Source: Bdellovibrionota bacterium
GTDB lineage: Bacteria > Bdellovibrionota_C > UBA2361 > JBGSMV01
Length of the DNA: 12,340 bases
Direction of reading: 5' to 3'
Assembly: GCA_044356455.1 (NCBI GenBank)
Contig: JBIKWF010000121.1
Coordinates: forward strand, 1 to 12,340
In this document: positions 1,185-12,247 of the stretch, one piece after another
How positions within the stretch are numbered: the first letter of the stretch is position 1
How the letters are laid out: each line of letters begins with the position of its first letter
Translations under genes and position numbers: made by a program
The notes under the pieces: model-generated
The model's database searches: none
What the model saw: the letters and a program-made list of their open reading frames with translations, nothing else
Told to the model about the DNA's origin: nothing

Positions 1185-1200
1185 CTGGTCCTGCTTTCTA

Positions 1201-1320
1201 AGGAACCTGAAAAACCTCCATTCCTAATAAACCTCTGCGTCCTCTGTGGTGAAATTTTCATAAAGAAATTCACCACAGAGGACGCAGAGTTACACAGAGG
1301 TGAGTTTCTCAGAGGCTCCC
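1201..1320. mobile_element. Composite TIR/hairpin MITE-like element, copy A
   Basis: Ends AGGAACC--TGAAAAA and TTTCTCAGAGGCTCCC; perfect 21-bp internal inverted repeat 1233-1253/1269-1289; lies between convergent genes. Confidence 0.75.
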
Positions 1321-1347
1321 AAATTTACCCGAGAAGCTAAGAGTATC

Positions 1348-1764
1348 TTACTTCCCCCTCTGGCAACGTCCCGCCACACAGGCAACTGTTGGGAGCTCAG
1401 AAGGGCATGGGCTAGCAGGAGCACTCGCAGCGTCATCTTCTCCACAAGACGAGTGCACATCACGCACGAGGGCCTGATACGAAGCCACTTTGCTCTCTGC
1501 GAGTAGGGGTGCTTTCCCAATGACAAGGGGAATCTGGCAAGCAGCCTCCCCACATTCAATATAAGCAGCCTCGCAGTCAGAATCTTTCTCACAAGAATTT
1601 TGCACAACCGAATCAACAAAAGCACGGCAGCTTCCCTGCGCCTGCTTGCACAGGAACGAGCTCTTGGGCGGTGATTCAGAGCAGGAGGCGAGCAGCAGTA
1701 AAAAAACAGCCAGAATGCAAGGCGCGCGTCTCGCCAAAGCCCAAGATTTTAGGAGAGTGCTCAT
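1348..1764 (-). CDS. Cysteine-rich putative lipoprotein
   Basis: Lipobox LLLLAS-C after a hydrophobic stretch; 10 further Cys including CEKDSDC and a C-terminal CVAGRC; GAGGA about 10 nt upstream of the ATG. Confidence 0.75.
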   Translation of the reverse strand: MSTLLKSWALARRAPCILAVFLLLLASCSESPPKSSFLCKQAQGSCRAFVDSVVQNSCEKDSDCEAAYIECGEAACQIPLVIGKAPLLAESKVASYQALVRDVHSSCGEDDAASAPASPCPSELPTVACVAGRCQRGK

Positions 1765-1769
1765 ATCTT

Positions 1770-1849
1770 CTCTGTCCTCTGTTCTTTAACAACTTAAATC
1801 AACCACAGCGGGCGCAGAGTTCACAGAGCAAACTTTTTCGAAGCTTACT
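1770..1849. mobile_element. Decayed composite element, copy B (right half)
   Basis: AACAACTTAAATCAACCACAGCGGGCGCAGAGTTCACAGAG...TTTTTCGAAGCTTACT|TA aligns with copies C (reverse complement) and E; its end coincides with the cutA stop codon. Confidence 0.7.
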
Positions 1850-2169
1850 TATGGCTTCACAGACTGCCTAACCCACTCGGCATAAGCGGCGGAAACTTGG
1901 CAGGCTTCCAGCACCACAAACTCAGGGAGCTTATACGGGTGCAGCTCCTTAAGGCGCGCCTCAAGGGCTGATACTTTCTCAGCCGCTGTCTTAATCAACA
2001 ATAAAACTTCGGGGTCGGTATTGAGAGCCCCTTCCCAGGAATAGACAGAGCTTAGGCCTGGAACAATGTTAACGCAGGCAGCAAGGCGCACTTCAACGAG
2101 CGTCTTAGCAATCTGGGCCGCTATTTCTTGAGAGGGAAAGGTAGAAAGCACTATGCGGATTTCATTCAT
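1849..2169 (-). CDS. cutA: Divalent-cation tolerance protein CutA
   Basis: LVEVRLAACVNIVPG, SVYSWEG, EVLLLIKT, LHPYKLPE, YAEWV; 106 aa; AGGA SD 6 nt upstream. Confidence 0.95.
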   Translation of the reverse strand: MNEIRIVLSTFPSQEIAAQIAKTLVEVRLAACVNIVPGLSSVYSWEGALNTDPEVLLLIKTAAEKVSALEARLKELHPYKLPEFVVLEACQVSAAYAEWVRQSVKP

Positions 2170-2188
2170 ACATATCCTAAATTGCCAT

Positions 2189-2217
2189 TTGCCCGCTGAT
2201 ATTAAAAGTCTTAGGAT
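2189..2217 (+). promoter_or_regulatory. Putative sigma70 promoter for the gene at 2247
   Basis: TTGCCC-17 nt-TAGGAT, upstream of the AAGGAG SD at 2233-2238. Confidence 0.45.
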
Positions 2218-2246
2218 TTAGCCTGAGTTAGCAAGGAGCTTTCCCC

Positions 2247-2876
2247 ATGGCTAGATATACTCACTTCTTTAGCAGCACCGTCTGTAAAAGCGCCGCTCGC
2301 ATAGCCCTTGCGGGCTCGCTGTTTCTTATGTTCCAAGCAAGCGCCTCGTTTGCTCAAGTTTCAACGCCAGTTCCTGTGGCAACAGCTGCGAGTAAAATTA
2401 GGGAAGTGCCTCCGACACCCGCACCTCCCACGCCGACCCCGTTCCCACAAAAGGGCGTGCTCTCGCGAGCCGCAACCAAGAACTACAACACTAAAATTGT
2501 TGATGGCCCTTGGGCTGGAGGAGGGGATTCTCAGGGCGCAGCTCCAATTGCAGGCTCGGTTTCAAGAAAGTCCGACCGTGAATGGGTGGCGAAGCTCTAC
2601 AACAACTCAGAGGACGCCTACAGCGTTTCGGTAGAAGTCATTCAGATGAACAAGAATGGAAAGCGCGAAAAATCAGATAGCTTTGCCACTCGCCTTTCGT
2701 CCAAGGGCAGCTACGAGCGTGTACTCAGAGCTACCGAGAGAACCGTTGACTGCCAGCTAAACCTGGTAAGCTGGAAAAATCTCACCGCAAAGAAGGCGCT
2801 ACAGGAAGATAGGGACGCATCCCTCGAAGAGGGAGCAGGCGGGGGAACGCAGCAACCTCCAGCGATAAGCCGCTGA
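2247..2876 (+). CDS. Secreted hypothetical protein with Pro/Thr linker and a small beta-rich domain (possibly FxLYD/YcfL-like)
   Basis: Strong AAGGAG SD; signal peptide ending ASASFA; PPTPAPPTPTPFP linker; alternating beta pattern AKLYNNSEDAYSVSVEVIQMNKNG. The domain assignment is tentative. Confidence 0.75.
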   Translation: MARYTHFFSSTVCKSAARIALAGSLFLMFQASASFAQVSTPVPVATAASKIREVPPTPAPPTPTPFPQKGVLSRAATKNYNTKIVDGPWAGGGDSQGAAPIAGSVSRKSDREWVAKLYNNSEDAYSVSVEVIQMNKNGKREKSDSFATRLSSKGSYERVLRATERTVDCQLNLVSWKNLTAKKALQEDRDASLEEGAGGGTQQPPAISR

Positions 2877-3160
2877 AACTAATGGCTTTTCACTATCGCA
2901 TCCTGTCATGTGGTAGCGCCGAAGCTTCTGGGTAAGGCGGAGCTGCTCGATTTTATAAGTGCCTGGCACCTGGGAACACGGCGGTGGGCGCTCCGCGTGC
3001 CTAATCCGCGCTTTAATGGTACGCTTTCCCACGTAACTACCTCTCGTTACATCTTTTTTGTTCTGTCAACCTCTTCGTCCAGCCGCGCCAGGCGTGGCGT
3101 TGGTGAGGTTTGTTCAGAATAACGCTGACTTTTGTTTTTTTTTTTGAGACTTCGCTCCGG

Positions 3161-5047
3161 ATGGGAACTCGCCGCCAAACAGAACCAGAAGCCGATCAGA
3201 GGCGCCTGCGCGAGCTGGAAACTCATCTCGTTTCCCCATCACGCCATGGAGGAGACCTTCGCATACACTTGGTGTACCCGAATAGTTACTGGGTGGCGAT
3301 GTCGAACCTTGGGTTTCAAGCGGTCTACCGTTTATTTGCAGAGCAGCCGGGAGTCGTCATTGAACGTGCCTTTCTCCCCGATAGACCTTACGACCAGCAA
3401 ACGTTCTCAAGCTCCTGGCGCACTTTTGAATCGTCTCGACTGATAGGTGATTGCGATATCCTCGCCTTCAGCCTTTCCTTTGAGACTGACTATCCACACC
3501 TTTTCCGCATTCTTAGAAATCAAGGACTCCTTTCACTCTCCCCAGAGGAACGCGCAGCGAAGGCGGACGGCTCTAAATTCTCCACGCCCCTTATTATTGC
3601 GGGCGGGACTTCCGTGACGCTTAATCCCGAACCCGTGGCTGACGTTCTTGACCTCGCCATGCTGGGCGAAGCAGAGGAGTGGATTCCTGAATTTACTGGC
3701 TCAATTAGGCGGTCAAGAGAACTTGGGCTAAACCGCCAGCAGACGCTTGCGCGCCTTACTCAAATTGAAGGCGTCTACGTGCCTCGCTTTTACACCCCGC
3801 ATTACGAATCAGATGGCCGGATTGCGCGCTTTGAACATCAAGTCCTCCCGCTTGTTGACGATGCAGGCAACGAGACGCAAACGAGCGCGCCAAAGGCGCA
3901 AAGAAGATTTGTTAAGGATCTTTCTAAATTTCCTACCTACACAAGCATTCTCACGCCAGAGACAGAATTCCGATCCATGTTTCTCACGGAGACAGGCCGA
4001 GGTTGTGAGATGGGATGCCGCTTCTGCGTTGCTGGCTACATCTACCGCCCGGTGCGTAAGCGCAGCGAAGAATCGATCTCTGGCTCCATTAAGCTCGGCC
4101 TCGAGAAAAGCAATGCCGTAGGATTTGTTGGGGCCTCAGTATCCTCGCATAAAGCAATTGCCAAACTTGCGAGCAGCGTCGCCAAGACAGGAGCGCGCGC
4201 ATCGCTTAGCTCACTCATGTCTCAGAAGATTACCAAGGAACTCGCCGCAAGCCTTTCAGAAAGCGAATACAAGACTGTGGCTCTTGCCCCCGAAGCAGGA
4301 AGCGAAAGGTTAAGGCGCGCAGCGGGGAAACGGGTAACCAATGCCCAAGTCGTCGAGGCAGCCACGGAACTCGCCGAGGCCGGAATCAAAGGCTTTAAGC
4401 TCTATTTTATCGTAGGGCTCCCCACTGAGACGGATGAAGATATCGAAGCGATTGTAAACCTGGCTTCTCAAATTCGTGAAGCAGTGGTGAATGCCTCGAA
4501 GGAAAGCGGGAAGGCTGCCTGGGTGGTACTTTCGGTAAATCCTTTCATCCCCAAGGCGAACACGCCCTTTCAGTGGGAACCGATGCTTGACCAAAAGGTT
4601 CTAAGCAGAAAGATAGATCTCATTCGTGCCGCGATTAAGCGCATACCCAATATTGAGCTGCATTTCGAACCACCCAAGGAAAGCTACTTTCAGGCTCTCT
4701 TATCTCGAGGGGACCGGCGCGTGGCGCAGCTTTTGTTTGCGGCTGAAAACGCGGGTAAGGATTGGAAGTGGCTCCTCTCGAACGGCTCAGAGCGCCTGGC
4801 GCCTGGGGTACCAGAAATTGATTTCTACGCGACGCGGCGCTTTTCTTTTGATGAACCGCTGCCCTGGGAGATCGTCGATTCTAGAATCGATAGGCGCCTG
4901 CTTTTACGGGAAGCCCAGAGGGCGCACCATGGCGAGAGCTACCAGCTTCCTGAGGGGAATGAATGTGTGGAAGAAATTGAACGGCCTGTGGTTGAAGGTA
5001 CCTCTATGCTGCGGGAGAGTAGCGTTTTGAGCGAACAACTTGCATGA
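3161..5047 (+). CDS. Radical SAM protein, uncharacterised family (TIGR03960/YgiQ-like)
   Basis: CxxxCxxC motif (RGCEMGCRFC), YPNSYWVAMSNLG, APEAGSERLR, KLYFIVGLPTET, PFIPKANTPFQW, LPWEIVD. ATG 3161 is preferred over TTG 3110, which would translate a poly-T tract. Confidence 0.9.
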   Translation: MGTRRQTEPEADQRRLRELETHLVSPSRHGGDLRIHLVYPNSYWVAMSNLGFQAVYRLFAEQPGVVIERAFLPDRPYDQQTFSSSWRTFESSRLIGDCDILAFSLSFETDYPHLFRILRNQGLLSLSPEERAAKADGSKFSTPLIIAGGTSVTLNPEPVADVLDLAMLGEAEEWIPEFTGSIRRSRELGLNRQQTLARLTQIEGVYVPRFYTPHYESDGRIARFEHQVLPLVDDAGNETQTSAPKAQRRFVKDLSKFPTYTSILTPETEFRSMFLTETGRGCEMGCRFCVAGYIYRPVRKRSEESISGSIKLGLEKSNAVGFVGASVSSHKAIAKLASSVAKTGARASLSSLMSQKITKELAASLSESEYKTVALAPEAGSERLRRAAGKRVTNAQVVEAATELAEAGIKGFKLYFIVGLPTETDEDIEAIVNLASQIREAVVNASKESGKAAWVVLSVNPFIPKANTPFQWEPMLDQKVLSRKIDLIRAAIKRIPNIELHFEPPKESYFQALLSRGDRRVAQLLFAAENAGKDWKWLLSNGSERLAPGVPEIDFYATRRFSFDEPLPWEIVDSRIDRRLLLREAQRAHHGESYQLPEGNECVEEIERPVVEGTSMLRESSVLSEQLA

Positions 5048-5070
5048 GGGCTGATTACCTCGGTAAATTA

Positions 5071-5202
5071 GGGAAGCTCTGAAAAAGTCCACTCTGTGAG
5101 CTCTGTGCCCTCTGTGGTTGATTTAAATTGTTGAAAAACCACAGAGGACACAGAGATCACAGAGAAAAAAAAATAGAATATCGAGGTTTTTCAGAGATTC
5201 CT
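5071..5202. mobile_element. Composite TIR/hairpin MITE-like element, copy C (inverted relative to E)
   Basis: TA|GGGAAGCTCTGAAAAA ... TTTTTCAGAGATTCCT|TA; 28-bp internal inverted repeat 5092-5119/5137-5164 with 2 mismatches; TTAG at both junctions. Confidence 0.85.
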
Positions 5203-5247
5203 TAGGTAAAATCTTAAGAACCGAAAGAGGGTCAAATTTTCCCACCC

Positions 5248-5290
5248 CTTAGTGGTCTTTGTGGTTGTCTTTTCATTATTATGAAATTTA
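5248..5290. repeat. Possible relic hairpin arm of the same family
   Basis: 9-nt units CTTAGTGGT-CTTTGTGGT-TG followed by an AT-rich palindrome TTTCAT-TATT-ATGAAA. Confidence 0.3.
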
Positions 5291-5312
5291 ATTCAGTGAG
5301 CGCTGAGAGACT

Positions 5313-6095
5313 ATGATGAAGCATATTGTCCCCATCATCTCTGGGAAAGGCGGAGTGGGAAAATCCACCGTAGCGGCGAATCTCGCGGTTGCTCTCGCAC
5401 GCACCGGCGCTTCCGTTGCACTGATTGACAGCGATTTTTATGGCCCGAGCGTGCCGACCCTGTTTGGGGGCGGCGCTATCCAGACGGACCATGAGGAGAA
5501 AATTATTCCTCCGCTTAAGTTTGGGGTGAAGTACATTTCCCTCGGCTTTTTTCTAAGGAATCCCGACGACGCCATTATTTGGCGTGGCCCGATGTTCAAT
5601 AAGGCTCTCACCCAGATGTTCCAAGATGTGAACTGGGGTGACGTGGACTACTGCATCATTGATATGCCTCCAGGAACGGGAGACGCGCAGCTCTCCCTCT
5701 CTCAGCTCGTAAAGTGCCGGGGAGCAGTGGTGGTGACTACCCCGCAGGAAGTCGCTCTTGCCGACGTAAGGAAAGCCGTCAACATGCTCTCCAAGGTCAA
5801 CATTGATGTGCTTGGTATCATTGAGAACATGTCGGGATTTATTGCACCCGACGGCACACGGCATGACATTTTTGGCTCTGGGGGCGGAGCTTTGCTGGCA
5901 CAGAACCTAGGGGTACCGCTCCTCGCCACCCTCCCAATCCAGCCGGAAATTCGCGAGGGAGGGGATAAGGGCGTTCCTAGTGCCTCCAGGGACGACAGCC
6001 AAGCCGGCCGGGCCTTCCAAGAGATCGCATTGAAATTAATCAATATTCTTGATAGCAAGCTTGCAGCGCAGCCAGCACTACAGGTGGTGAATTAG
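5313..6095 (+). CDS. mrp: Mrp/NBP35 (ApbC) family P-loop ATPase, Fe-S cluster carrier
   Basis: SGKGGVGKST, DSDFYGPS, IIWRGPM, DMPPGTGD, VTTPQ, IENMS, IFGSGGG. Confidence 0.93.
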   Translation: MMKHIVPIISGKGGVGKSTVAANLAVALARTGASVALIDSDFYGPSVPTLFGGGAIQTDHEEKIIPPLKFGVKYISLGFFLRNPDDAIIWRGPMFNKALTQMFQDVNWGDVDYCIIDMPPGTGDAQLSLSQLVKCRGAVVVTTPQEVALADVRKAVNMLSKVNIDVLGIIENMSGFIAPDGTRHDIFGSGGGALLAQNLGVPLLATLPIQPEIREGGDKGVPSASRDDSQAGRAFQEIALKLINILDSKLAAQPALQVVN

Positions 6096-6240
6096 GGAGT
6101 CTCTTTAAAAGTCCTCCTTCGTGCTCTTCGCGTCCTTTGCGTCCTTCGCGTTAAATAAACCCGGCGCGTAATGTATTGCACAATAACGCGAAGGACGCCG
6201 GGGACACGAAGGGGAAAAACAAAGTTCCTCAGAGGTTCCC
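6095..6240. mobile_element. Composite TIR/hairpin MITE-like element, copy D (different internal cargo)
   Basis: TA|GGGAGTCTCTTTAAAA ... TTCCTCAGAGGTTCCC|TA; four 9-nt units (CTTCGTGCT, CTTCGCGTC, CTTTGCGTC, CTTCGCGTT at 6117-6152); perfect 15-bp inverted repeat 6139-6153/6184-6198; starts within the mrp TAG. Confidence 0.8.
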
Positions 6241-6281
6241 TAGCTCCTCTAAGGCAACAGTTCCATTAAGGTAATAGGCCC

Positions 6282-6794
6282 ATGTTCTACTTTATTGTTT
6301 CAGTCCATTTCTTTCTTTGTTTGCTCTTAGTTGGCCTCGTTCTTCTTCAGCAGGGGAAGGGCGCTGATATGGGTCCCGCATTTGGCTCCGGGGGCGCAAA
6401 TTCTTTGTTTGGTGCTGCAGGAGCTGCTCCCTTCATTGTAAAGCTCACCACAGGCGTCTGCATCCTCTTCATGGTGACCTCCATTTTCCTCATTAAAAAT
6501 TACGATAAATTCGCGGCTTCGCGGGTTGCTGTAGGCGACGCTCTGTCAGGGTCAGTGCTTGATGGGGCGGCACTTGGGGGTTCGGAAGCCTCAAAGCCAG
6601 CCGCTGAAACAACTTCAGAAACAGCAACGACTGAAGCTCCTTCAGCAGCAGCCCCCTCAGAAGCGGCCCCCGCCGCAGCGGCAGTTCCGCTTGCTAAAGA
6701 TGCCGCTCCTGCATCGGAACCAGTTGCGGCCCAAGGTTCCACTACTGGCTCTAAGGCCCCAAGCGCAGCGTCAGGAAGCGTGCCCACAAAGTAG
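6282..6794 (+). CDS. secG: Preprotein translocase subunit SecG with long Ala/Pro/Ser/Glu tail
   Basis: LVLLQQGKGADMGPAFGSGGANSLFGAAG, two TM segments, followed by tRNA-Leu(GAG) as in the conserved secG-leuU arrangement. Confidence 0.95.
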   Translation: MFYFIVSVHFFLCLLLVGLVLLQQGKGADMGPAFGSGGANSLFGAAGAAPFIVKLTTGVCILFMVTSIFLIKNYDKFAASRVAVGDALSGSVLDGAALGGSEASKPAAETTSETATTEAPSAAAPSEAAPAAAAVPLAKDAAPASEPVAAQGSTTGSKAPSAASGSVPTK

Positions 6795-6869
6795 GGCGAG
6801 TTAGCTAAACCCTGAACAATGCTGGACGATTATCCAAAGAAAAAGCATAGAGGAAAATGCCTCGCATGC

Positions 6870-6898
6870 TTGATTCTAAACTGCGGTGCGGGTAGAAA
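6870..6898 (+). promoter_or_regulatory. Putative sigma70 promoter of tRNA-Leu
   Basis: TTGATT-17 nt-TAGAAA followed by a C-rich discriminator-like stretch, 17 nt upstream of the tRNA. Confidence 0.4.
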
Positions 6899-6915
6899 TA
6901 CCCCTCGCATCATCT

Positions 6916-6998
6916 GCCCAGATGGTGGAATGGTAGACACGCCAGCTTGAGGGGCTGGTGGACGCAAGTCCGTGGAGGTTCAAGTCCTCTTCTGGGCA
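6916..6998 (+). tRNA. tRNA-Leu (anticodon GAG), CCA not encoded
   Basis: Acceptor GCCCAGA/TCTGGGC+A; D loop GGAATGGTAGAC; anticodon stem CCAGC-TTGAGGG-GCTGG; long variable arm GGAC-GCAA-GTCC; T arm GGAGGTTCAAGTCCTC. Confidence 0.97.
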
Positions 6999-7065
6999 TT
7001 CTTTTTGGTAAGGCACGTAACCTTCTTTTTTCTAGAAGAGACGTTGCTTCTCACTCTACAAATTA

Positions 7066-7129
7066 GCTCCTTGGTCCAAATACTCATTGGCCTAAGTGCT
7101 CCTTGGCCTAAATGCTCCTAGGGCTCAAT
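7066..7129 (+). repeat. Degenerate 16-bp tandem repeat, 4 copies
   Basis: GCTCCTTGGTCCAAAT / ACTCATTGGCCTAAGT / GCTCCTTGGCCTAAAT / GCTCCTAGGGCTCAAT. Confidence 0.85.
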
Positions 7130-7151
7130 TGCTCGGGAGGCACCAGACAAT

Positions 7152-7185
7152 CCCTCTACCCGTTCTGCCCCTCTACCCGTTCTGC
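7152..7185 (+). repeat. Perfect 17-bp tandem duplication
   Basis: CCCTCTACCCGTTCTGC occurs twice in tandem. Confidence 0.9.
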
Positions 7186-7199
7186 CGCGATTTTTGAGT

Positions 7200-7304
7200 C
7201 TTTGGCGACCTCGGCGATGAATTTCTTCTTGAAAATTCAACCAAGGGGGGACGCTAAAGTGTACAGAAGTGTATTCAGACTGAAGGTTTTCAGAGGTTTC
7301 ATTA
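7200..7304. mobile_element. Heavily decayed composite element, copy F
   Basis: Hairpin remnants CTTTGGCG/CGCTAAAG and TGAATTT/AAATTCA (loop region resembles copy A), plus a right-TIR-like AGGTTTTCAGAGGTTTCATTA. Confidence 0.45.
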
Positions 7305-7352
7305 GGCTCAAATCAAGGTATTCTCTTATCCCAGTATTCGAGGAGCATACCC

Positions 7353-10300
7353 GTGTCCAGCAAACCTGCATCTGACAGCCACCCACAAGAATCAACCCCG
7401 CTTCCACCAACTACGTTCTCCGAGCATTTTGAGTTCGGAAAGCGAGAGCCTGAGCTTTATGCTCTTTGGGAGAAGGGCGGTTCGTTTTCTTTCGACTACG
7501 CCAAGCCCTCGCCAAAGCTCCCTCTCAATGAGCAGGCGTTTGTGCTTTGCATGCCGCCGCCGAACGCCAACGGCGAGTTACATCTCGGCCACTCCTATGG
7601 CTACTCAATAATGGACACCCTTGGCCGATACTACAGGGCCCAGGGCAGACGTGTGCTTCTTCTTCCGGGTAAGGATCACGCAGGCATTCAGACCCAAGTT
7701 GTTTTCGAGAACAAACTCCGCGCCGAGGGAAAAGACCTCACCAAGATGACGCGCGAGGAACTCTATGATGCGTGCTACGCCTTTTGCATGGACCGCTCGA
7801 ACTACATGCGAGCGCAAGAAAAACAGCTCGGCGTTTCGGCAGACTGGAAGCGCGAATTTTTCACCCTCGATCCGCGCCTTACCAAAGTTATTTATGAAAC
7901 ATTCACCAAACTTTGGAATGATGGCCTGATTTACAAAGGCAAGCGAATTGTTAACTGGTCCGTGCTCTCAGGCACCGCAATCTCAGATGTAGAGGTTGAG
8001 CGCAAAGAAGTTGAGGGCACGCTCACTTACATTCGCTACCCCTTTGTCTCGAAACCTGGCTCGCCTCGTACAAAACCAGCAGCGCTTAGCTCAGAGGCGC
8101 AGATTCACCAAGGCCCGAACGGCGTTTCCCTAGTCCTTTCAAGCAAGGAATATGGAGCAGGGGACATTCTAACCATACCTGCCGCCAAGGAGGGAGAAGA
8201 AGACAAAAGGCTGGTATGCGTTGAGGCGCTCCACGTGTCCGCGCAAACCACCACTCTTAAGAAGCTTTGCGAAGAGCTCTCAGTCCCCGATGAATTAGGG
8301 CAGCTCAAAACTGCACTTGATGCGTTTCTTGCCGCAGGCGGCGGGGCCATTTCGAAATGTGTCTCTTACTTTGAAGTCACCGAAGACATGATCACGGCGA
8401 CTACTCGGCCTGAGACAATGCTCGGTGACACGGCGCTTGCCGTTCACCCCAAGGATCCTCGCTACGCACACGTGGTGGGGACTCAGGTGCAGGTGCCGCT
8501 CATCGGAAGAAAAATTCCCATTGTCGCTGACGAACGAGCAGAGATGGGATTTGGAACAGGCGTGATCAAAGTTACCCCGGCCCACGACTTTGTGGACTTT
8601 GATATTGGTGCTACGCACAAGCTACCTGTGGTGCAGGTCATTGGACCTGACGGCAAAATGACCGATGAAGCAGGACGCTTCGTTGGCCTGGAAGCAAAGA
8701 AATGCCGGGCGCAAGTTGTCGCTGACCTTGAAGCAGAAGGCCGAGTGCTGCGGATTGAGAAAATCAAGCACAAAGTGCCTATCGCCGAACGCAGCAAAGA
8801 CATCATCGAGCCCCTTATCTCAGAGCAGTGGTTCATCGCCGTTGACGCTCCCGGGAAAAGCCTCAAGGAAAAGGCGCTTGCTCTCGTGGAAGCCGGCAAG
8901 ATTCAGATCCATCCACCGCACTTTAGGAAGGAATTTGAGCACTGGCTTAAGAGCCTTAGGGACTGGAACATCTCGCGCCAGCTCTGGTGGGGGCACAGAC
9001 TTCCAGTTTGGTACAAGACAGGCGCAGATGGCAAAGAGGAACTCTTTGTCGGATCGGAAGCACCCAAGGGTGAAGGCTGGCGCCAGGAGACCGATACTTT
9101 CGACACCTGGTTCTCCTCTGGGCAATGGGCATTCTCAACGCTTGCGGGATGCGGGGAAGTGGACCTGGCTACGGGGGCATCGCCTCGCGGAGCGTTCCCA
9201 TCCCAGTGCATGCAGATGGGCCGCGATATCCTTTTCTTCTGGGCCTGCCGCATGCTGCTGCTTACCGCCTACCGCATGAGCGAAGTTCCTTGGCAGAGCA
9301 TCTACTTTACTGGCCTCATCCGCGATGAACAGGGCCAGAAGATGTCGAAATCAAAGGGCAACGGCGTTGAACCTGGTGTCATGATTGCAAAGTATGGCGC
9401 CGACGCACTGCGCCTCGCGCTGCTCTTTGGCACCACTCCAGGAAACGACGTAAACATGGGCGAAGGGAAAATTGGCGGATACTCGAAGTTCGTCAATAAG
9501 CTCTGGAATGCGGGTAAGCTGCTCGAAATGCGCGTTCTTGGCGGAGTCTCAGGCCAGCTCCCCACACCTCCTAAACTCACCAGTGATGCCGCTCGCTGGA
9601 TAGTGGATGAGACTAACAAGCTTCGAAAGCAGGTCCGCCACTTGATGAACACGTACCAGCTTGGTCAAGCACTTACGGAGCTTTACAGCGCGACGTGGGA
9701 CACCTTTTGTGATTGGTACCTTGAAATCGCAAAAGTGCTCTCCAAAGACGAAAACTCTCCGCAAAGAGGCGAGCTCCAGTGGGCCGCCCAGTATAGCTTC
9801 GGGAGCATTGTTGAGATGCTGCATCCCTTTATTCCCTACATTACCGAGGAGCTCTGCCAAAAGCTTCCTGGCCTGGTAGCTGGCACAACCGTCTGCGGTA
9901 GCGAGTGGCACGCCGACTATGTGTTTAGTGACGCAAAAGGCGCAGCTGCCCCTGGAGCACCGATTGCAGAAGTAGTTGAAATTGTAAAAGCGATTCGCTC
10001 CAGCAAGGCGGTACTTGGCGGCTTGGGCTCAGGCATCCCTGTGGCACTGACAGGCGGCTCCCTCTCTGCCGAGGGAGAATTGCTCGTACAAGAACTTGGG
10101 CGAATTCGCCTCGTTAAGCCTCAGGAGATTCCGGCTGAGCGCTCGGTGAAAAAAGCTTTCTCGCTTGGCGTGCTGACGTTCGACCATCCCGACCGAGAGG
10201 GATTTGCACAGAAACTTAAGAAAGAGGCCGAGAATCTGAAAGCAACTATTGAACGTCTTGAGTCGCGGCTCAATTCGGATTTTGCGGCTCGTGCACGGCC

Positions 10301-10391
10301 CGATGTGGTTCAAGGAGAAAGGGATAAACTCGCCACTGCCCAAAAGACCTTGCAGCATCTCTCGGCGGAGCTGGAGGCGTTGGGTGGGTAG
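7353..10391 (+). CDS. valS: Valine--tRNA ligase with an insertion in the editing domain
   Basis: PPPNANGELHLGH (HIGH), DHAGIQTQ, ATTRPETMLGD, GTGVIKVTPAHD, DWNISRQLWWGHR, DTWFSSG, KMSKSKGN and C-terminal coiled coil; GTG start with GAGGAG SD at 7340-7345. Confidence 0.97.
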   Translation: MSSKPASDSHPQESTPLPPTTFSEHFEFGKREPELYALWEKGGSFSFDYAKPSPKLPLNEQAFVLCMPPPNANGELHLGHSYGYSIMDTLGRYYRAQGRRVLLLPGKDHAGIQTQVVFENKLRAEGKDLTKMTREELYDACYAFCMDRSNYMRAQEKQLGVSADWKREFFTLDPRLTKVIYETFTKLWNDGLIYKGKRIVNWSVLSGTAISDVEVERKEVEGTLTYIRYPFVSKPGSPRTKPAALSSEAQIHQGPNGVSLVLSSKEYGAGDILTIPAAKEGEEDKRLVCVEALHVSAQTTTLKKLCEELSVPDELGQLKTALDAFLAAGGGAISKCVSYFEVTEDMITATTRPETMLGDTALAVHPKDPRYAHVVGTQVQVPLIGRKIPIVADERAEMGFGTGVIKVTPAHDFVDFDIGATHKLPVVQVIGPDGKMTDEAGRFVGLEAKKCRAQVVADLEAEGRVLRIEKIKHKVPIAERSKDIIEPLISEQWFIAVDAPGKSLKEKALALVEAGKIQIHPPHFRKEFEHWLKSLRDWNISRQLWWGHRLPVWYKTGADGKEELFVGSEAPKGEGWRQETDTFDTWFSSGQWAFSTLAGCGEVDLATGASPRGAFPSQCMQMGRDILFFWACRMLLLTAYRMSEVPWQSIYFTGLIRDEQGQKMSKSKGNGVEPGVMIAKYGADALRLALLFGTTPGNDVNMGEGKIGGYSKFVNKLWNAGKLLEMRVLGGVSGQLPTPPKLTSDAARWIVDETNKLRKQVRHLMNTYQLGQALTELYSATWDTFCDWYLEIAKVLSKDENSPQRGELQWAAQYSFGSIVEMLHPFIPYITEELCQKLPGLVAGTTVCGSEWHADYVFSDAKGAAAPGAPIAEVVEIVKAIRSSKAVLGGLGSGIPVALTGGSLSAEGELLVQELGRIRLVKPQEIPAERSVKKAFSLGVLTFDHPDREGFAQKLKKEAENLKATIERLESRLNSDFAARARPDVVQGERDKLATAQKTLQHLSAELEALGG

Positions 10392-10409
10392 TGCGGAACG
10401 TCTTGTTTT

Positions 10410-10502
10410 CGGCGCCCTGGTACAGGGCGCCCTACCAAGCAATGGTATTGCCATTCAACGTGAGGGCGATACATGGTAGGGCGCCTTGTCCCTAAGGCGC
10501 CG
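10410..10502. repeat. Inverted doublet of GTAG-family REPs (REPIN/BIME-like)
   Basis: Minus strand 10435-10410 GTAGGGCGCCCTGTACCAGGGCGCCG; plus strand 10476-10502 GTAGGGCGCCTTGTCCCTAAGGCGCCG; each is GTAG plus an 8-9 bp stem; the 40-nt spacer contains AATGG-TATTG-CCATT. Confidence 0.8.
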
Positions 10503-10567
10503 AACAAATGCTACGTCAATAGAAACGGTGCCTGAGTTTGCCACGACTAATCATTTGAGATCCCCAC

Positions 10568-12118
10568 ATGGCGCCACCTATCGCAATCTTCTATGACCTA
10601 GAAACCTCCGACAAAAGCCCCATCGGCCAAATCCTCAACTATTCATTCATTGCGGTAGACCAATCACTCTCCATGGTGGCGGAGTGTTCGGGAGATGTGC
10701 GCCTTTCCCGCCTACAGCTTCCAAGCCCAGAAGCTATCCTTAAGAACCGTGTTAACGTTGCCACCCTACAAAAGACCACGAGCACCACCGAACGAGAGGC
10801 CATGGCTCGAATTGCAGAGTTTATTGGTGCCCAAATTAAGGCGGCGCAAGCAACCAATAAGGGCAACGCGCAATACGGAAAGCAGAAACTTATTTTTATA
10901 GGGTATAATTCCAGCAAATTCGACCTCCCGTTTCTACGCACCAGCTGGATTCGGAGCGGCATAAATCCTTATTTCAACGGGAATCTGCTCTATCGAGATG
11001 TGCTCTTGGCGGTGAGAAAGCTCTCGGTAAGCCATCCAGACTTCCCTCGTGTAGGGGCTCAGCACCAGAGCAGCCAAGATGAAGGACTTCCCGCTCGACT
11101 TTCCCTATCCCTGGAGACGGTCACTCACGCGCTAAAACTTCTTGAGGGAGCCCAGTCGCATCACTCACGCGATGATGTGATTCTCACGATAGATCTCGCC
11201 AAAGCACTCCGTGAGCGCTTTGGTCTCGATGTGCTTTCGTATGAGTCTTTTGAAGCAGGCGCTTGGCTCAAGAGCCCAAGCCCCGGAAGAATATTCTGGG
11301 CTCATTCTCCCAATTACGATCTTTCGAAGAGTCAGCTCTTCGAACGCACCCCGTTTGCACTTCTAGAGGCAAACTATCGCTACTGCCTTTTGGTGAACCT
11401 TGAGCGCTTCGCAAAAGGCGAAGGGAGGCGCAGTATCCAGTGGTTTAACCAGGCAGGCGGAGCTCTTTATTTTGGGGGAGCGGCATCTGAGCAAGAATCA
11501 ATTTCGCTAGAAACAGGTGAAACTTTCGCCCTCGGGGAGCTTGCAGCCAAGGCGAGAGAGGAATGTAAAGGCATCACGCTCACCAATTTTTTCCCCACCA
11601 GCACATGCGATATCGAGCAAGACATCTACCGCCTCGATATGCCTCGCATTGGCGCGCTCGAAACAGCCCTCTGGGGAGGGGACACGAAGCCCCTTTCAGA
11701 GCTTAAAGACAGAGACGCCAAAGTAGTCTACTTGCGTGCGCTTCTCGCGGAATACCGCTGGCAAGGAGGAAGAATTCCCGTGCCACCTGAAAGCGCAGCC
11801 TCTGAGCAGGATGCGAAAATGGCAAAAAGCCTTAAAAATTACGCGCTCTACCGCTACGGGGGCAAACTCCAAATGGCCAAATCCCTCGACGGAGCCAAAG
11901 AAGACGAGGCCTTCCACCCGACTCTTACGAATCTTTTCGAGCGGCTTACCAAATGCAAAGAGCAGGCGTCGGCGCGCGGCGCTAGTGAAGACCTCGCTCT
12001 ACTGGCTGCGGTGCAGGAGTACTATGACCGCTCGGAGATAGTGCAAATAGCGGGGCCTGAGCTGCTTGGCCAATCGCAAGCAGACCCTCACGCAACTGCG
12101 GAAAACGGGACTACTTAG
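10568..12118 (+). CDS. DEDDh 3'-5' exonuclease, divergent Exonuclease I (SbcB)-like
   Basis: ExoI motif FYDLETS, LPSPEAIL, ExoII motif GYNSSKFD, SLSLETV, ExoIII motif HHSRDDV; C-terminal DIEQDIY resembles the SbcB D-x-D/E-x-x-L-Y motif; 516 aa. Confidence 0.8.
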   Translation: MAPPIAIFYDLETSDKSPIGQILNYSFIAVDQSLSMVAECSGDVRLSRLQLPSPEAILKNRVNVATLQKTTSTTEREAMARIAEFIGAQIKAAQATNKGNAQYGKQKLIFIGYNSSKFDLPFLRTSWIRSGINPYFNGNLLYRDVLLAVRKLSVSHPDFPRVGAQHQSSQDEGLPARLSLSLETVTHALKLLEGAQSHHSRDDVILTIDLAKALRERFGLDVLSYESFEAGAWLKSPSPGRIFWAHSPNYDLSKSQLFERTPFALLEANYRYCLLVNLERFAKGEGRRSIQWFNQAGGALYFGGAASEQESISLETGETFALGELAAKAREECKGITLTNFFPTSTCDIEQDIYRLDMPRIGALETALWGGDTKPLSELKDRDAKVVYLRALLAEYRWQGGRIPVPPESAASEQDAKMAKSLKNYALYRYGGKLQMAKSLDGAKEDEAFHPTLTNLFERLTKCKEQASARGASEDLALLAAVQEYYDRSEIVQIAGPELLGQSQADPHATAENGTT

Positions 12119-12240
12119 GGAGCCTCTGAAAAACCTAGATATTTTATTTCTTTCCCTCCGTGTTCTCTGTGCCCTCTGTGGTTTTTCAGCAATTTAAAAC
12201 AACCACAGAGGGCACAGAGCAGATTTTTTCAAAGCTTCCC
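12118..12240. mobile_element. Composite TIR/hairpin MITE-like element, copy E
   Basis: TA|GGGAGCCTCTGAAAAA ... TTTTTCAAAGCTTCCC|TA; perfect 19-bp internal inverted repeat 12165-12183/12201-12219; starts within the exonuclease TAG. Confidence 0.85.
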
Positions 12241-12247
12241 TAGGAGT

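Follow-up and report, generated by a model that had tools for sequence, protein, structure and literature searches.

What are the similar non-coding stretches that recur between ordinary genes in a 12,340-nt piece of DNA from a lake bacterium of the Bdellovibrionota, and how could they have come to lie there? The piece (contig JBIKWF010000121.1 of assembly GCA_044356455.1, called the window here, by which the whole stretch is meant) is the entire contig C128 of a 4.70-Mb draft genome in 216 contigs, with a GC content of 52.5%, an estimated completeness of 93% and a shortest contig of 2.6 kb. An earlier note, made by reading the letters of the window, had described about seven intergenic elements with terminal inverted repeats around a hairpin, and had suggested a high-copy, possibly undescribed family of MITEs, or miniature inverted-repeat transposable elements. 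The analysis reported here indicates that the repeats are very probably copies of a non-coding MITE of ~128 bp, with ends of the IS5 group of insertion sequences and a 4-bp duplication of the target YTAR, which occupies ~570 loci; its likely mover, acting in trans, is a DDE transposase of the IS5 group that is missing from the assembly. Such a transposase would bind both terminal repeats and insert the element at YTAR. The element itself appears to be a composite, in which IS5-type ends surround a hairpin resembling repetitive extragenic palindromic (REP) sequences, and not a simple deletion product of an insertion sequence. New in this analysis are the link to real IS5-group elements, the link to a published precedent (MITEPsy1), an empty site, a species-specific burst and an independent hairpin family.

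Family size, target duplication and insertion sites

The window contains four full copies of the element, termed A, C, D and E. A family search with nhmmer from copy E, and then with a 136-position profile, over the 4.7-Mb draft genome returned 574 distinct loci, of which 341 are full length, 183 one-sided and 50 internal only, bearing out the high copy number that had been proposed. On average there is one locus in about 8 kb, a density that the window exceeds about fourfold with its six or seven copies in 12.3 kb. The element proper is ~128 bp long and non-coding, with 15-bp terminal inverted repeats (GGAACCTCTGAAAAA). The earlier note had recognised this shared terminal repeat and given it 16 bp, the first R of which is part of the target duplication. 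The two repeats of a pair are spaced 120-139 bp apart in 245 of 360 cases, a minor cluster lies near 210 bp and a handful at 30-80 bp, and the genome also has short elements (44-70 bp) that consist of little beyond the two repeats. Copies are, in the median, 91.7% identical to their nearest neighbour and 85% identical to the consensus, and single-linkage clustering of the interiors places 302 of 320 elements in one cluster with no clean subfamilies.

This abundance is not shared by relatives. The repeat motif GGARCCTCTGAAAAA, with at most one mismatch allowed, has 560 matches in this genome and none in a reversed control, compared with 17 in a genome of the same genus and 0, 0 and 1 in three genomes of the same family (controls 0-1), suggesting that the expansion is confined to the species or its near relatives. 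The window was also compared with contigs from four other lake-water runs, among which there was no joint skipping exactly one copy and no copy-free allele. Read depth is heaped on the window copies because all copies of the family map there, and the comparison has no bearing on present mobility.

The target duplication was analysed in the 306 full copies with enough flank. The left flanking 4-mer is CTAG, CTAA, TTAG or TTAA in 238 of these and the right one in 260, and the left and right 4-mers are identical in 155; 1000 shuffles gave 68 on average and 94 at most. The variable Y position agrees between the two sides in 239 copies (177 expected) and the R position in 249 (165 expected), while at the positions next outward and next inward the agreement between sides is not above expectation. 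Since the agreement is confined to 4 bp, the element starts with GGAACC, ends with GGTTCC and is flanked by a duplicated 4-bp YTAR. The TA that had been noticed on both sides of copies C, D and E is indeed there, as the middle of this longer duplication. Two kinds of mover had been considered on that basis, an IS630/Tc1-like transposase with TA targets and an IS5-type transposase with YTAR targets; the 4-bp duplication and the matching IS5-group ends described below uphold the second and not the first.

A consequence of this target is visible at the ends of genes. Of 307 full copies, 92 have their duplicated TAA or TAG in use as the stop codon of an open frame of 100 codons or more, in 39 cases at the left side, in 62 at the right and in 9 at both, where the other two frames give 2 to 11 per side. 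This placement arises because YTAR contains TAA or TAG. In the window it is found in copy D (Mrp-type gene), copy E (an open reading frame (ORF) of 516 aa) and a relic at 1770-1848 (CutA1 gene). Insertion at a stop-bearing YTAR would rebuild the stop codon and leave the protein unchanged. Such insertions would thus be tolerated and would accumulate behind housekeeping genes; as an insertion on a stop spares the protein, these copies, and those behind genes generally, may be the ones that persist. According to gene calls based crudely on ORFs, gaps between convergent genes are occupied in 147 of 713 cases, tandem gaps in 250 of 2232 and divergent gaps in 56 of 739, and ORFs contain only 15 of the 574 loci. 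The copies show an enrichment at gene 3' ends.

The earlier note had proposed looking for empty orthologous sites, and the site of copy D is empty in three related genomes. The Mrp-type gene carrying copy D ends with ...AATTAG and the element follows directly. In genomes G003, G002 and G004 the gene ends with TTAG, TTAA and CTAA, and secG lies 25, 22 and 48 nt further on, respectively.

Source of the terminal repeats

Longer copies with a transposase between the same repeats, which the earlier note had suggested looking for, were not found in the assembly. The sole PF01609 match is an IS4-like gene of 440 aa (C213:3654-4973) without the MITE terminal repeats, and PF13586 and PF05598 gave zero matches in this genome. 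Fifteen pairs of repeats lie 0.67-2.2 kb apart. The three that were inspected enclose a GreB-like gene, a gene for a coiled-coil helix-turn-helix protein and the IS4-like gene; these pairs were rejected as transposons, being host genes held between two copies. A repeated element of 1.2 kb could be absent for technical reasons, because the assembly is 93% complete and includes no contig shorter than 2.6 kb.

Elements with these repeats and a transposase gene exist in other genomes. In G033, a genome of the same order, a defective element of 881 bp (C129, 184-1064) has these repeats and a TTAA/TTAA duplication, and contains N-terminal and C-terminal remains of an IS5-type transposase gene with an in-frame stop and an internal deletion. 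Each end of the G033 element is itself a 65-bp foldback, in which the terminal repeat and its own inverted copy enclose a GC-rich loop. With the N-terminal piece as query, matches were obtained in 7 of 91 genomes of the order. One of the seven, in G086, is an intact gene of 320 aa with a score of 377 bits against NCBIfam NF033581 (IS5 family transposase; cut-off 140), in an element with one recognisable end, GGAAGCTCTGAATAAG.

Element ends were examined at 80 public metagenome loci encoding relatives of the G086 transposase, in which end pairs with at most four mismatches were accepted. Repeat pairs 1167-1270 bp apart surround the transposase gene at 51 of the 80 loci; among these 51 the 4-bp flanks are identical at 32, and YTAR is present on the two sides at 39. 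The remaining loci comprise 23 with one end or an odd pair and 6 with none, many of the contigs being incomplete. When the ends are pooled, G1, G2, A3, A4, C8, G10, A12 and A15 show little or no variation, exactly as in the MITE repeat, and the consensus of the ends is the same as that repeat at all conserved positions. In a plasmid collection the closest annotated relative is the Ralstonia solanacearum 'transposase TIS1021', which is 60% identical over 93% of the query. The ends of the Ralstonia element lie 1210 bp apart, with CTAG preceding GGAAACGCTGAT at one end and CTAT following the other.

The hairpin interior and rival readings

Between its repeats the element consists of a palindrome of unusual regularity. 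Aligned, 307 copies give a consensus that folds into a single long hairpin (-82.6 kcal/mol), and a 17-nt AT-rich bulge on one side of the hairpin gives the element an orientation. Each arm contains three CTnnGnG heptamers at 9-bp spacing, in which the C, the T and both Gs are nearly invariant and the three n positions vary, changing together with the opposite arm. Cells are paired in 87.6% of cases, compared with 37-52% when the partner is slid by 1-3 columns, and paired cells changed on both sides number 420 compared with 79-210 when slid. Mutated cells in the left arm number 1729, and Watson-Crick pairing is restored in 502 of them, where independent arms would give 274; shared descent of subfamilies inflates all of these covariation counts. 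The covariation means that the source copies kept their pairing, not that each locus is under selection. Among the window copies, D (CTTCGCG type) and A (short type) are hairpin variants. Folded as single strands and compared with shuffles, copies A, C, D and E reach z = -8.7, -9.2, -4.8 and -6.3, respectively, and the relics fold no better than shuffles (z about -0.7). At C121:47943 onward in this genome a terminal repeat leads into a tandem array of six or more 9-bp units (TCCTTCGCG), so that the heptamer array is evidently able to expand in the manner of a minisatellite.

The hairpin is also present outside the element, without terminal repeats in this genome and in relatives and within other ends in G019, a genome of another family in the same order; both of these occurrences are new. 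A bare-hairpin profile identified 333 loci in this genome; both repeats are present at 150 of them, a single one at 43 and neither at 140. Among the 140 repeat-free loci are 38 complete hairpins of ~75 bp whose ends lie in unrelated DNA with no visible duplication. Examples of bare palindromes are found at C35:46897-46977, C117:1659-1738 and C154:56141-56221, and in the window at 5248-5290. The union of both profiles gives 666 hairpin loci, of which 291 have both repeats (CTCTGTG type 227, CTxxGCG type 45, CTTAGTG type 2) and 179 have none (CTTAGTG type 94, CTCTGTG type 22). These different heptamer types with and without repeats suggest that the bare hairpins are a separate lineage and not worn-down MITEs. 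In G019 the same core is found within elements whose ends are of at least two further kinds, the one starting with TACTCTGTAAACGAA beside CTAG and the other with ACTCATTAAC, and the two PF01609 matches of that genome are both without these ends. When a 73-nt core was compared with 124 genomes of the phylum, four matched, namely this genome, G019, G049 and G100 (another order), and the two copies inspected in each of G049 and G100 are all bare.

The element is read as a composite because related hairpins occur without the repeats and, elsewhere, within other ends. The strongest competitor of this reading is the textbook origin of a MITE, an ordinary deletion derivative of one IS5-type insertion sequence, in which the hairpin would be the parent's leftover interior and the bare hairpins eroded copies. 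The repeat-only short elements of 44-70 bp in this genome and the defective parent-like element in G033 are in keeping with such an origin. However, the bare hairpins are of a different subtype (CTTAGTG in 94 of 179, compared with 2 of 291 with both repeats), 38 complete ones end cleanly in unrelated DNA, and the same core sits between other ends in G019 and occurs bare in a genome from a different order, all of which makes simple deletion improbable. The wider distribution of the ends also argues against it. In a scan of one genome per species for two repeat cores 85-115 nt apart, at least 111 stretches matched. Of the 80 stretches inspected, 44 have GGRN outside both cores; 20 of these 44 have YTAR on both sides, identical in 19 of the 20. 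The stretches come from Pseudomonas, Cellvibrio, Nitrosomonas, a metagenome-assembled genome of Rickettsiales, Peribacteria and others. None of the 80 stretches with like ends contains three or more CTCTGTG/CACAGAG heptamers, and the heptamer hairpin is therefore present in 0 of 80. With like ends widespread and the heptamers absent from these 80 stretches, the ends seem to be common currency and the interior particular to this lineage.

A more far-reaching version of the composite reading can be put forward tentatively, as a possibility that falls short of being likely. The hairpin could be a portable palindrome of the REP-like kind, found across the class and built of CTnnGnG heptamers in 9-bp phase, which multiplies without having terminal repeats and which at least three unrelated sets of transposon ends (IS5-type here and two in G019) have acquired independently, the pairing of the hairpin being kept by selection. 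Were this so, the fold-back core might bring together both ends of a very short element, or the hairpin might instead shield neighbouring genes from read-through.

It is considerably less probable again, to the point of being very unlikely, that the repeats are host-selected structures of the kind formed by REP sequences and bacterial interspersed mosaic elements (BIMEs), or terminators or RNA-stabilising hairpins, spread by a tyrosine transposase or by recombination and with terminal repeats that are incidental. Pairing kept through changes on both arms, the enrichment of copies at gene 3' ends and the existence of a hairpin family without terminal repeats would all suit a structure of this kind. 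However, REPs make no target duplication and a clear 4-bp one is present here. A Y1 (RAYT-like) transposase was considered as the mover of the bare hairpins and rejected, as no adjacency was found: three weak matches to the Y1-transposase family (PF01797), the best at 30.4 bits, have no hairpin or MITE within 4 kb. Nor was any copy flagged by a simple terminator scan, which covered loops of 3-8 only and is a weak test (0 of 10 terminator-like sites in the window lie inside an element), and no Rfam family reached its threshold, the only hits being microRNA-precursor look-alikes at 21-33 bits against thresholds of 45-100. Least credible of all is a Stowaway-like MITE moved by an IS630/Tc1-mariner transposase with a TA-only duplication, since, although TA flanks nearly all copies (left 268 and 277 of 306, right 286 and 293 of 306), the bases on either side of it are duplicated too (239 vs 177 and 249 vs 165 expected) and the repeats match the ends of IS5-group elements.

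The preferred reading, a MITE moved in trans by an IS5-group transposase, has to be set against several observations that count against it. Searches with PF01609, PF13586 and PF05598 revealed no IS5-type transposase in this genome, and at the 18 of 432 contig ends where the repeat reads outward none continues into transposase sequence. The flanks are not identical in half of the copies, either through later mutation or because they never were, and only 7 of 46,971 copy pairs are at least 98% identical, so that the copies are fairly diverged. At the site of copy D the three genomes with the empty site belong to the same family and to other genera, and are not from the same population, and the same-genus genome has an unrelated 150-nt spacer there. 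To these are added the crude gene calls behind the gene-context counts and the inflation of the covariation counts by shared descent.

The hairpins also bear traces of other mobile elements. The same 127 nt terminates five contigs (C63:1-118, C85:4596-4731, C99:4089-4249, C171:2573-2719 and C155:1-127), inserted at differing points of MITE copies. In Rfam this insert matches the 3' end of a group II intron (domains V-VI; RF00029) at 31.4 bits and E 6.6e-4, below the gathering score of 40, and MITE hairpins seem to be landing sites for a group II intron. At four further contig ends (C28, C157, C175 and C192) a hairpin arm runs, after ...CTCTGTGTCCT, into one identical sequence of ~125 nt, and at C203, C207 and C206:86-172 the sequence passes from ...CCACAGAG into a second identical sequence. 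As a pair, the two shared sequences look like the junctions of a further multi-copy element whose target is a fixed point in the hairpin.

The window and known systems

Within the window the terminal motif GGAACCTCTGAAAAA, with at most three mismatches, has 8 matches where 0.53 are expected, and 8 was reached in 0 of 200 shuffles. One of the eight, at 10601, is inside an ORF and is probably a chance match. The E-values and outer borders of the copies were taken from a profile search restricted to the window, and refined borders from reading the sequence. The total is four full copies, two truncated copies and one borderline hairpin fragment, and the earlier count of about seven copies therefore holds for six, the stretch at 5248-5290 having no terminal repeat and belonging to the related hairpin family. 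A repeat finder linked 5092-5155 with 12156-12219 and recovered terminal stretches in 3-4 copies each.

Copy A lies on the plus strand (profile match 1200-1321, E 2e-23; element 1202-1319, with flanks 1198..1323). It belongs to the short-hairpin subfamily, its left repeat is 2 bases short, and its flanks are CTAA (1198-1201) on the left and a degenerate CAAA (1320-1323) on the right. The relic at 1770..1852, also on the plus strand, retains only the right part (profile match 1770-1851, profile positions 51-135, E 3.9e-16); its right repeat ends at 1848, and the flank TTAT (1849-1852) holds the TAA stop codon of CutA1, a gene on the minus strand. Copy C, on the minus strand, gives the best match (5069-5203, E 2e-41; element 5072-5201, with flanks 5068..5205) and has a perfect TTAG/TTAG target duplication. 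It is followed on the plus strand by the borderline fragment (5212..5309, E 1.2e-3), which is without a terminal repeat and in which 5248-5290 is one arm, or half, of the CTTAGTG-type hairpin. Copy D, of the CTTCGCG hairpin variant, is on the minus strand (profile match 6093-6242, E 1.5e-14; element 6096-6239, with flanks 6092..6243) between TTAG (6092-6095) on the left and CTAG on the right. The degenerate copy at 7202..7305 (minus strand; profile match 7202-7300, E 4.8e-6) is of the copy A subfamily and has a single terminal repeat remaining (7286-7300). Copy E, on the plus strand (profile match 12116-12243, E 1.6e-34; element 12119-12239, with flanks 12115..12243), has TTAG on its left (12115-12118), which includes the TAG stop codon of the 516-aa ORF, and CTAG on its right. 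Copies C and E had been described as close homologues in opposite orientation, and they are 87% complementary over 109 nt.

The repeats occupy the spaces between window genes that are themselves ordinary. These encode a formyl transferase, CutA1 (1849-2169, minus strand, with its TAA stop inside the relic flank), a radical SAM protein, an Mrp/NUBPL-type ATPase (5313-6095, with its TAG stop inside the left flank of copy D), SecG, a tRNA-Leu and a class I aminoacyl-tRNA synthetase with a valyl-type C-terminal arm. Three further ORFs have no Pfam match, and neither has the 516-aa ORF (10568-12118; no match at E 1e-5), whose stop codon is inside the target duplication of copy E. Downstream of the tRNA-Leu gene are three overlapping 28-nt direct repeats with a spacing of 16 nt (7066-7125) and, near 7151-7186, a doubled unit of 17-18 nt; one contig from another lake run has an extra 17-nt unit at 7151.

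The family accounts for the look-alike intergenic spaces and for many contig breaks in this genome, and its copies seem to double as landing pads for other mobile elements. It also provides a rule for annotation, in that a duplicated YTAR may be sitting on a stop codon. With 560 motifs here against 17 in the same-genus genome, the burst is species-specific, and the lineage is well suited to asking how bacterial MITEs gain interiors and whether a fold-back core aids the transposition of very short elements.

Several known systems resemble parts of this element. Insertion sequences of the IS5 group (NF033581 type) have the ends GGAAnCnCTGA and the 4-bp YTAR duplication in common with it, but are 1.17-1.27 kb long and encode a transposase, whereas the element described here encodes nothing. 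IS5 of E. coli likewise has YTAR targets and similar ends. ERIC and Correia elements are short, intergenic and present in hundreds of copies, form long hairpins when transcribed and often lie near gene ends; unlike the present element, they have other ends and TA targets. To our knowledge, arms of 9-bp-phased CTnnGnG heptamers occur in no palindromic MITE of the ERIC or Correia type.

The bare hairpins are similar to REPs and BIMEs in being palindromic and extragenic, ~75 bp long, present at ~140-180 loci and without visible target duplication. In contrast to REPs and BIMEs, no GTAG or CGTC tag was seen in them and no Y1 transposase adjoins them, and the window copies with terminal repeats do make a target duplication.

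Literature searches for the repeat strings returned unrelated primers only and no description of the family. Term searches of a 2024 review of MITEs (PMC10969869) and of a 2011 review of small repeats gave nothing on IS5-type targets or stop codons. The suggestion that the element is undescribed therefore stands for this family, for which the string searches were empty, but not for its kind, since one study already presents a MITE attributed to ISPsy2 (Bardaji et al. 2011, PMC3189936).

That element, MITEPsy1 of Pseudomonas syringae pv. phaseolicola 1448A, is there described as 100 nt long with the repeats GGAAGGTCTGAAAAAGCC and GTATCCTCTGAAAAAGCC, a 4-nt duplication of CTAG or YTAA and 6 copies; it was attributed to the IS5-family element ISPsy2, with the transposase acting in trans, and was caught transposing by trapping (PMC3189936). 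Of its sequence the paper prints the ends, and the sequence comparison covers these. The family described here differs in its length of ~128 bp, in its ~570 loci, in its long hairpin built from heptamers and in having no parent element in the assembly. The two are alike in being small and non-coding and in duplicating 4 nt of the CTAG/YTAA kind, and the first 15 bases of the MITEPsy1 repeat agree at 13 positions with the repeat found here. Its authors remarked that sequences resembling MITEPsy1 may be widespread (PMC3189936), which the scan of one genome per species described above supports.

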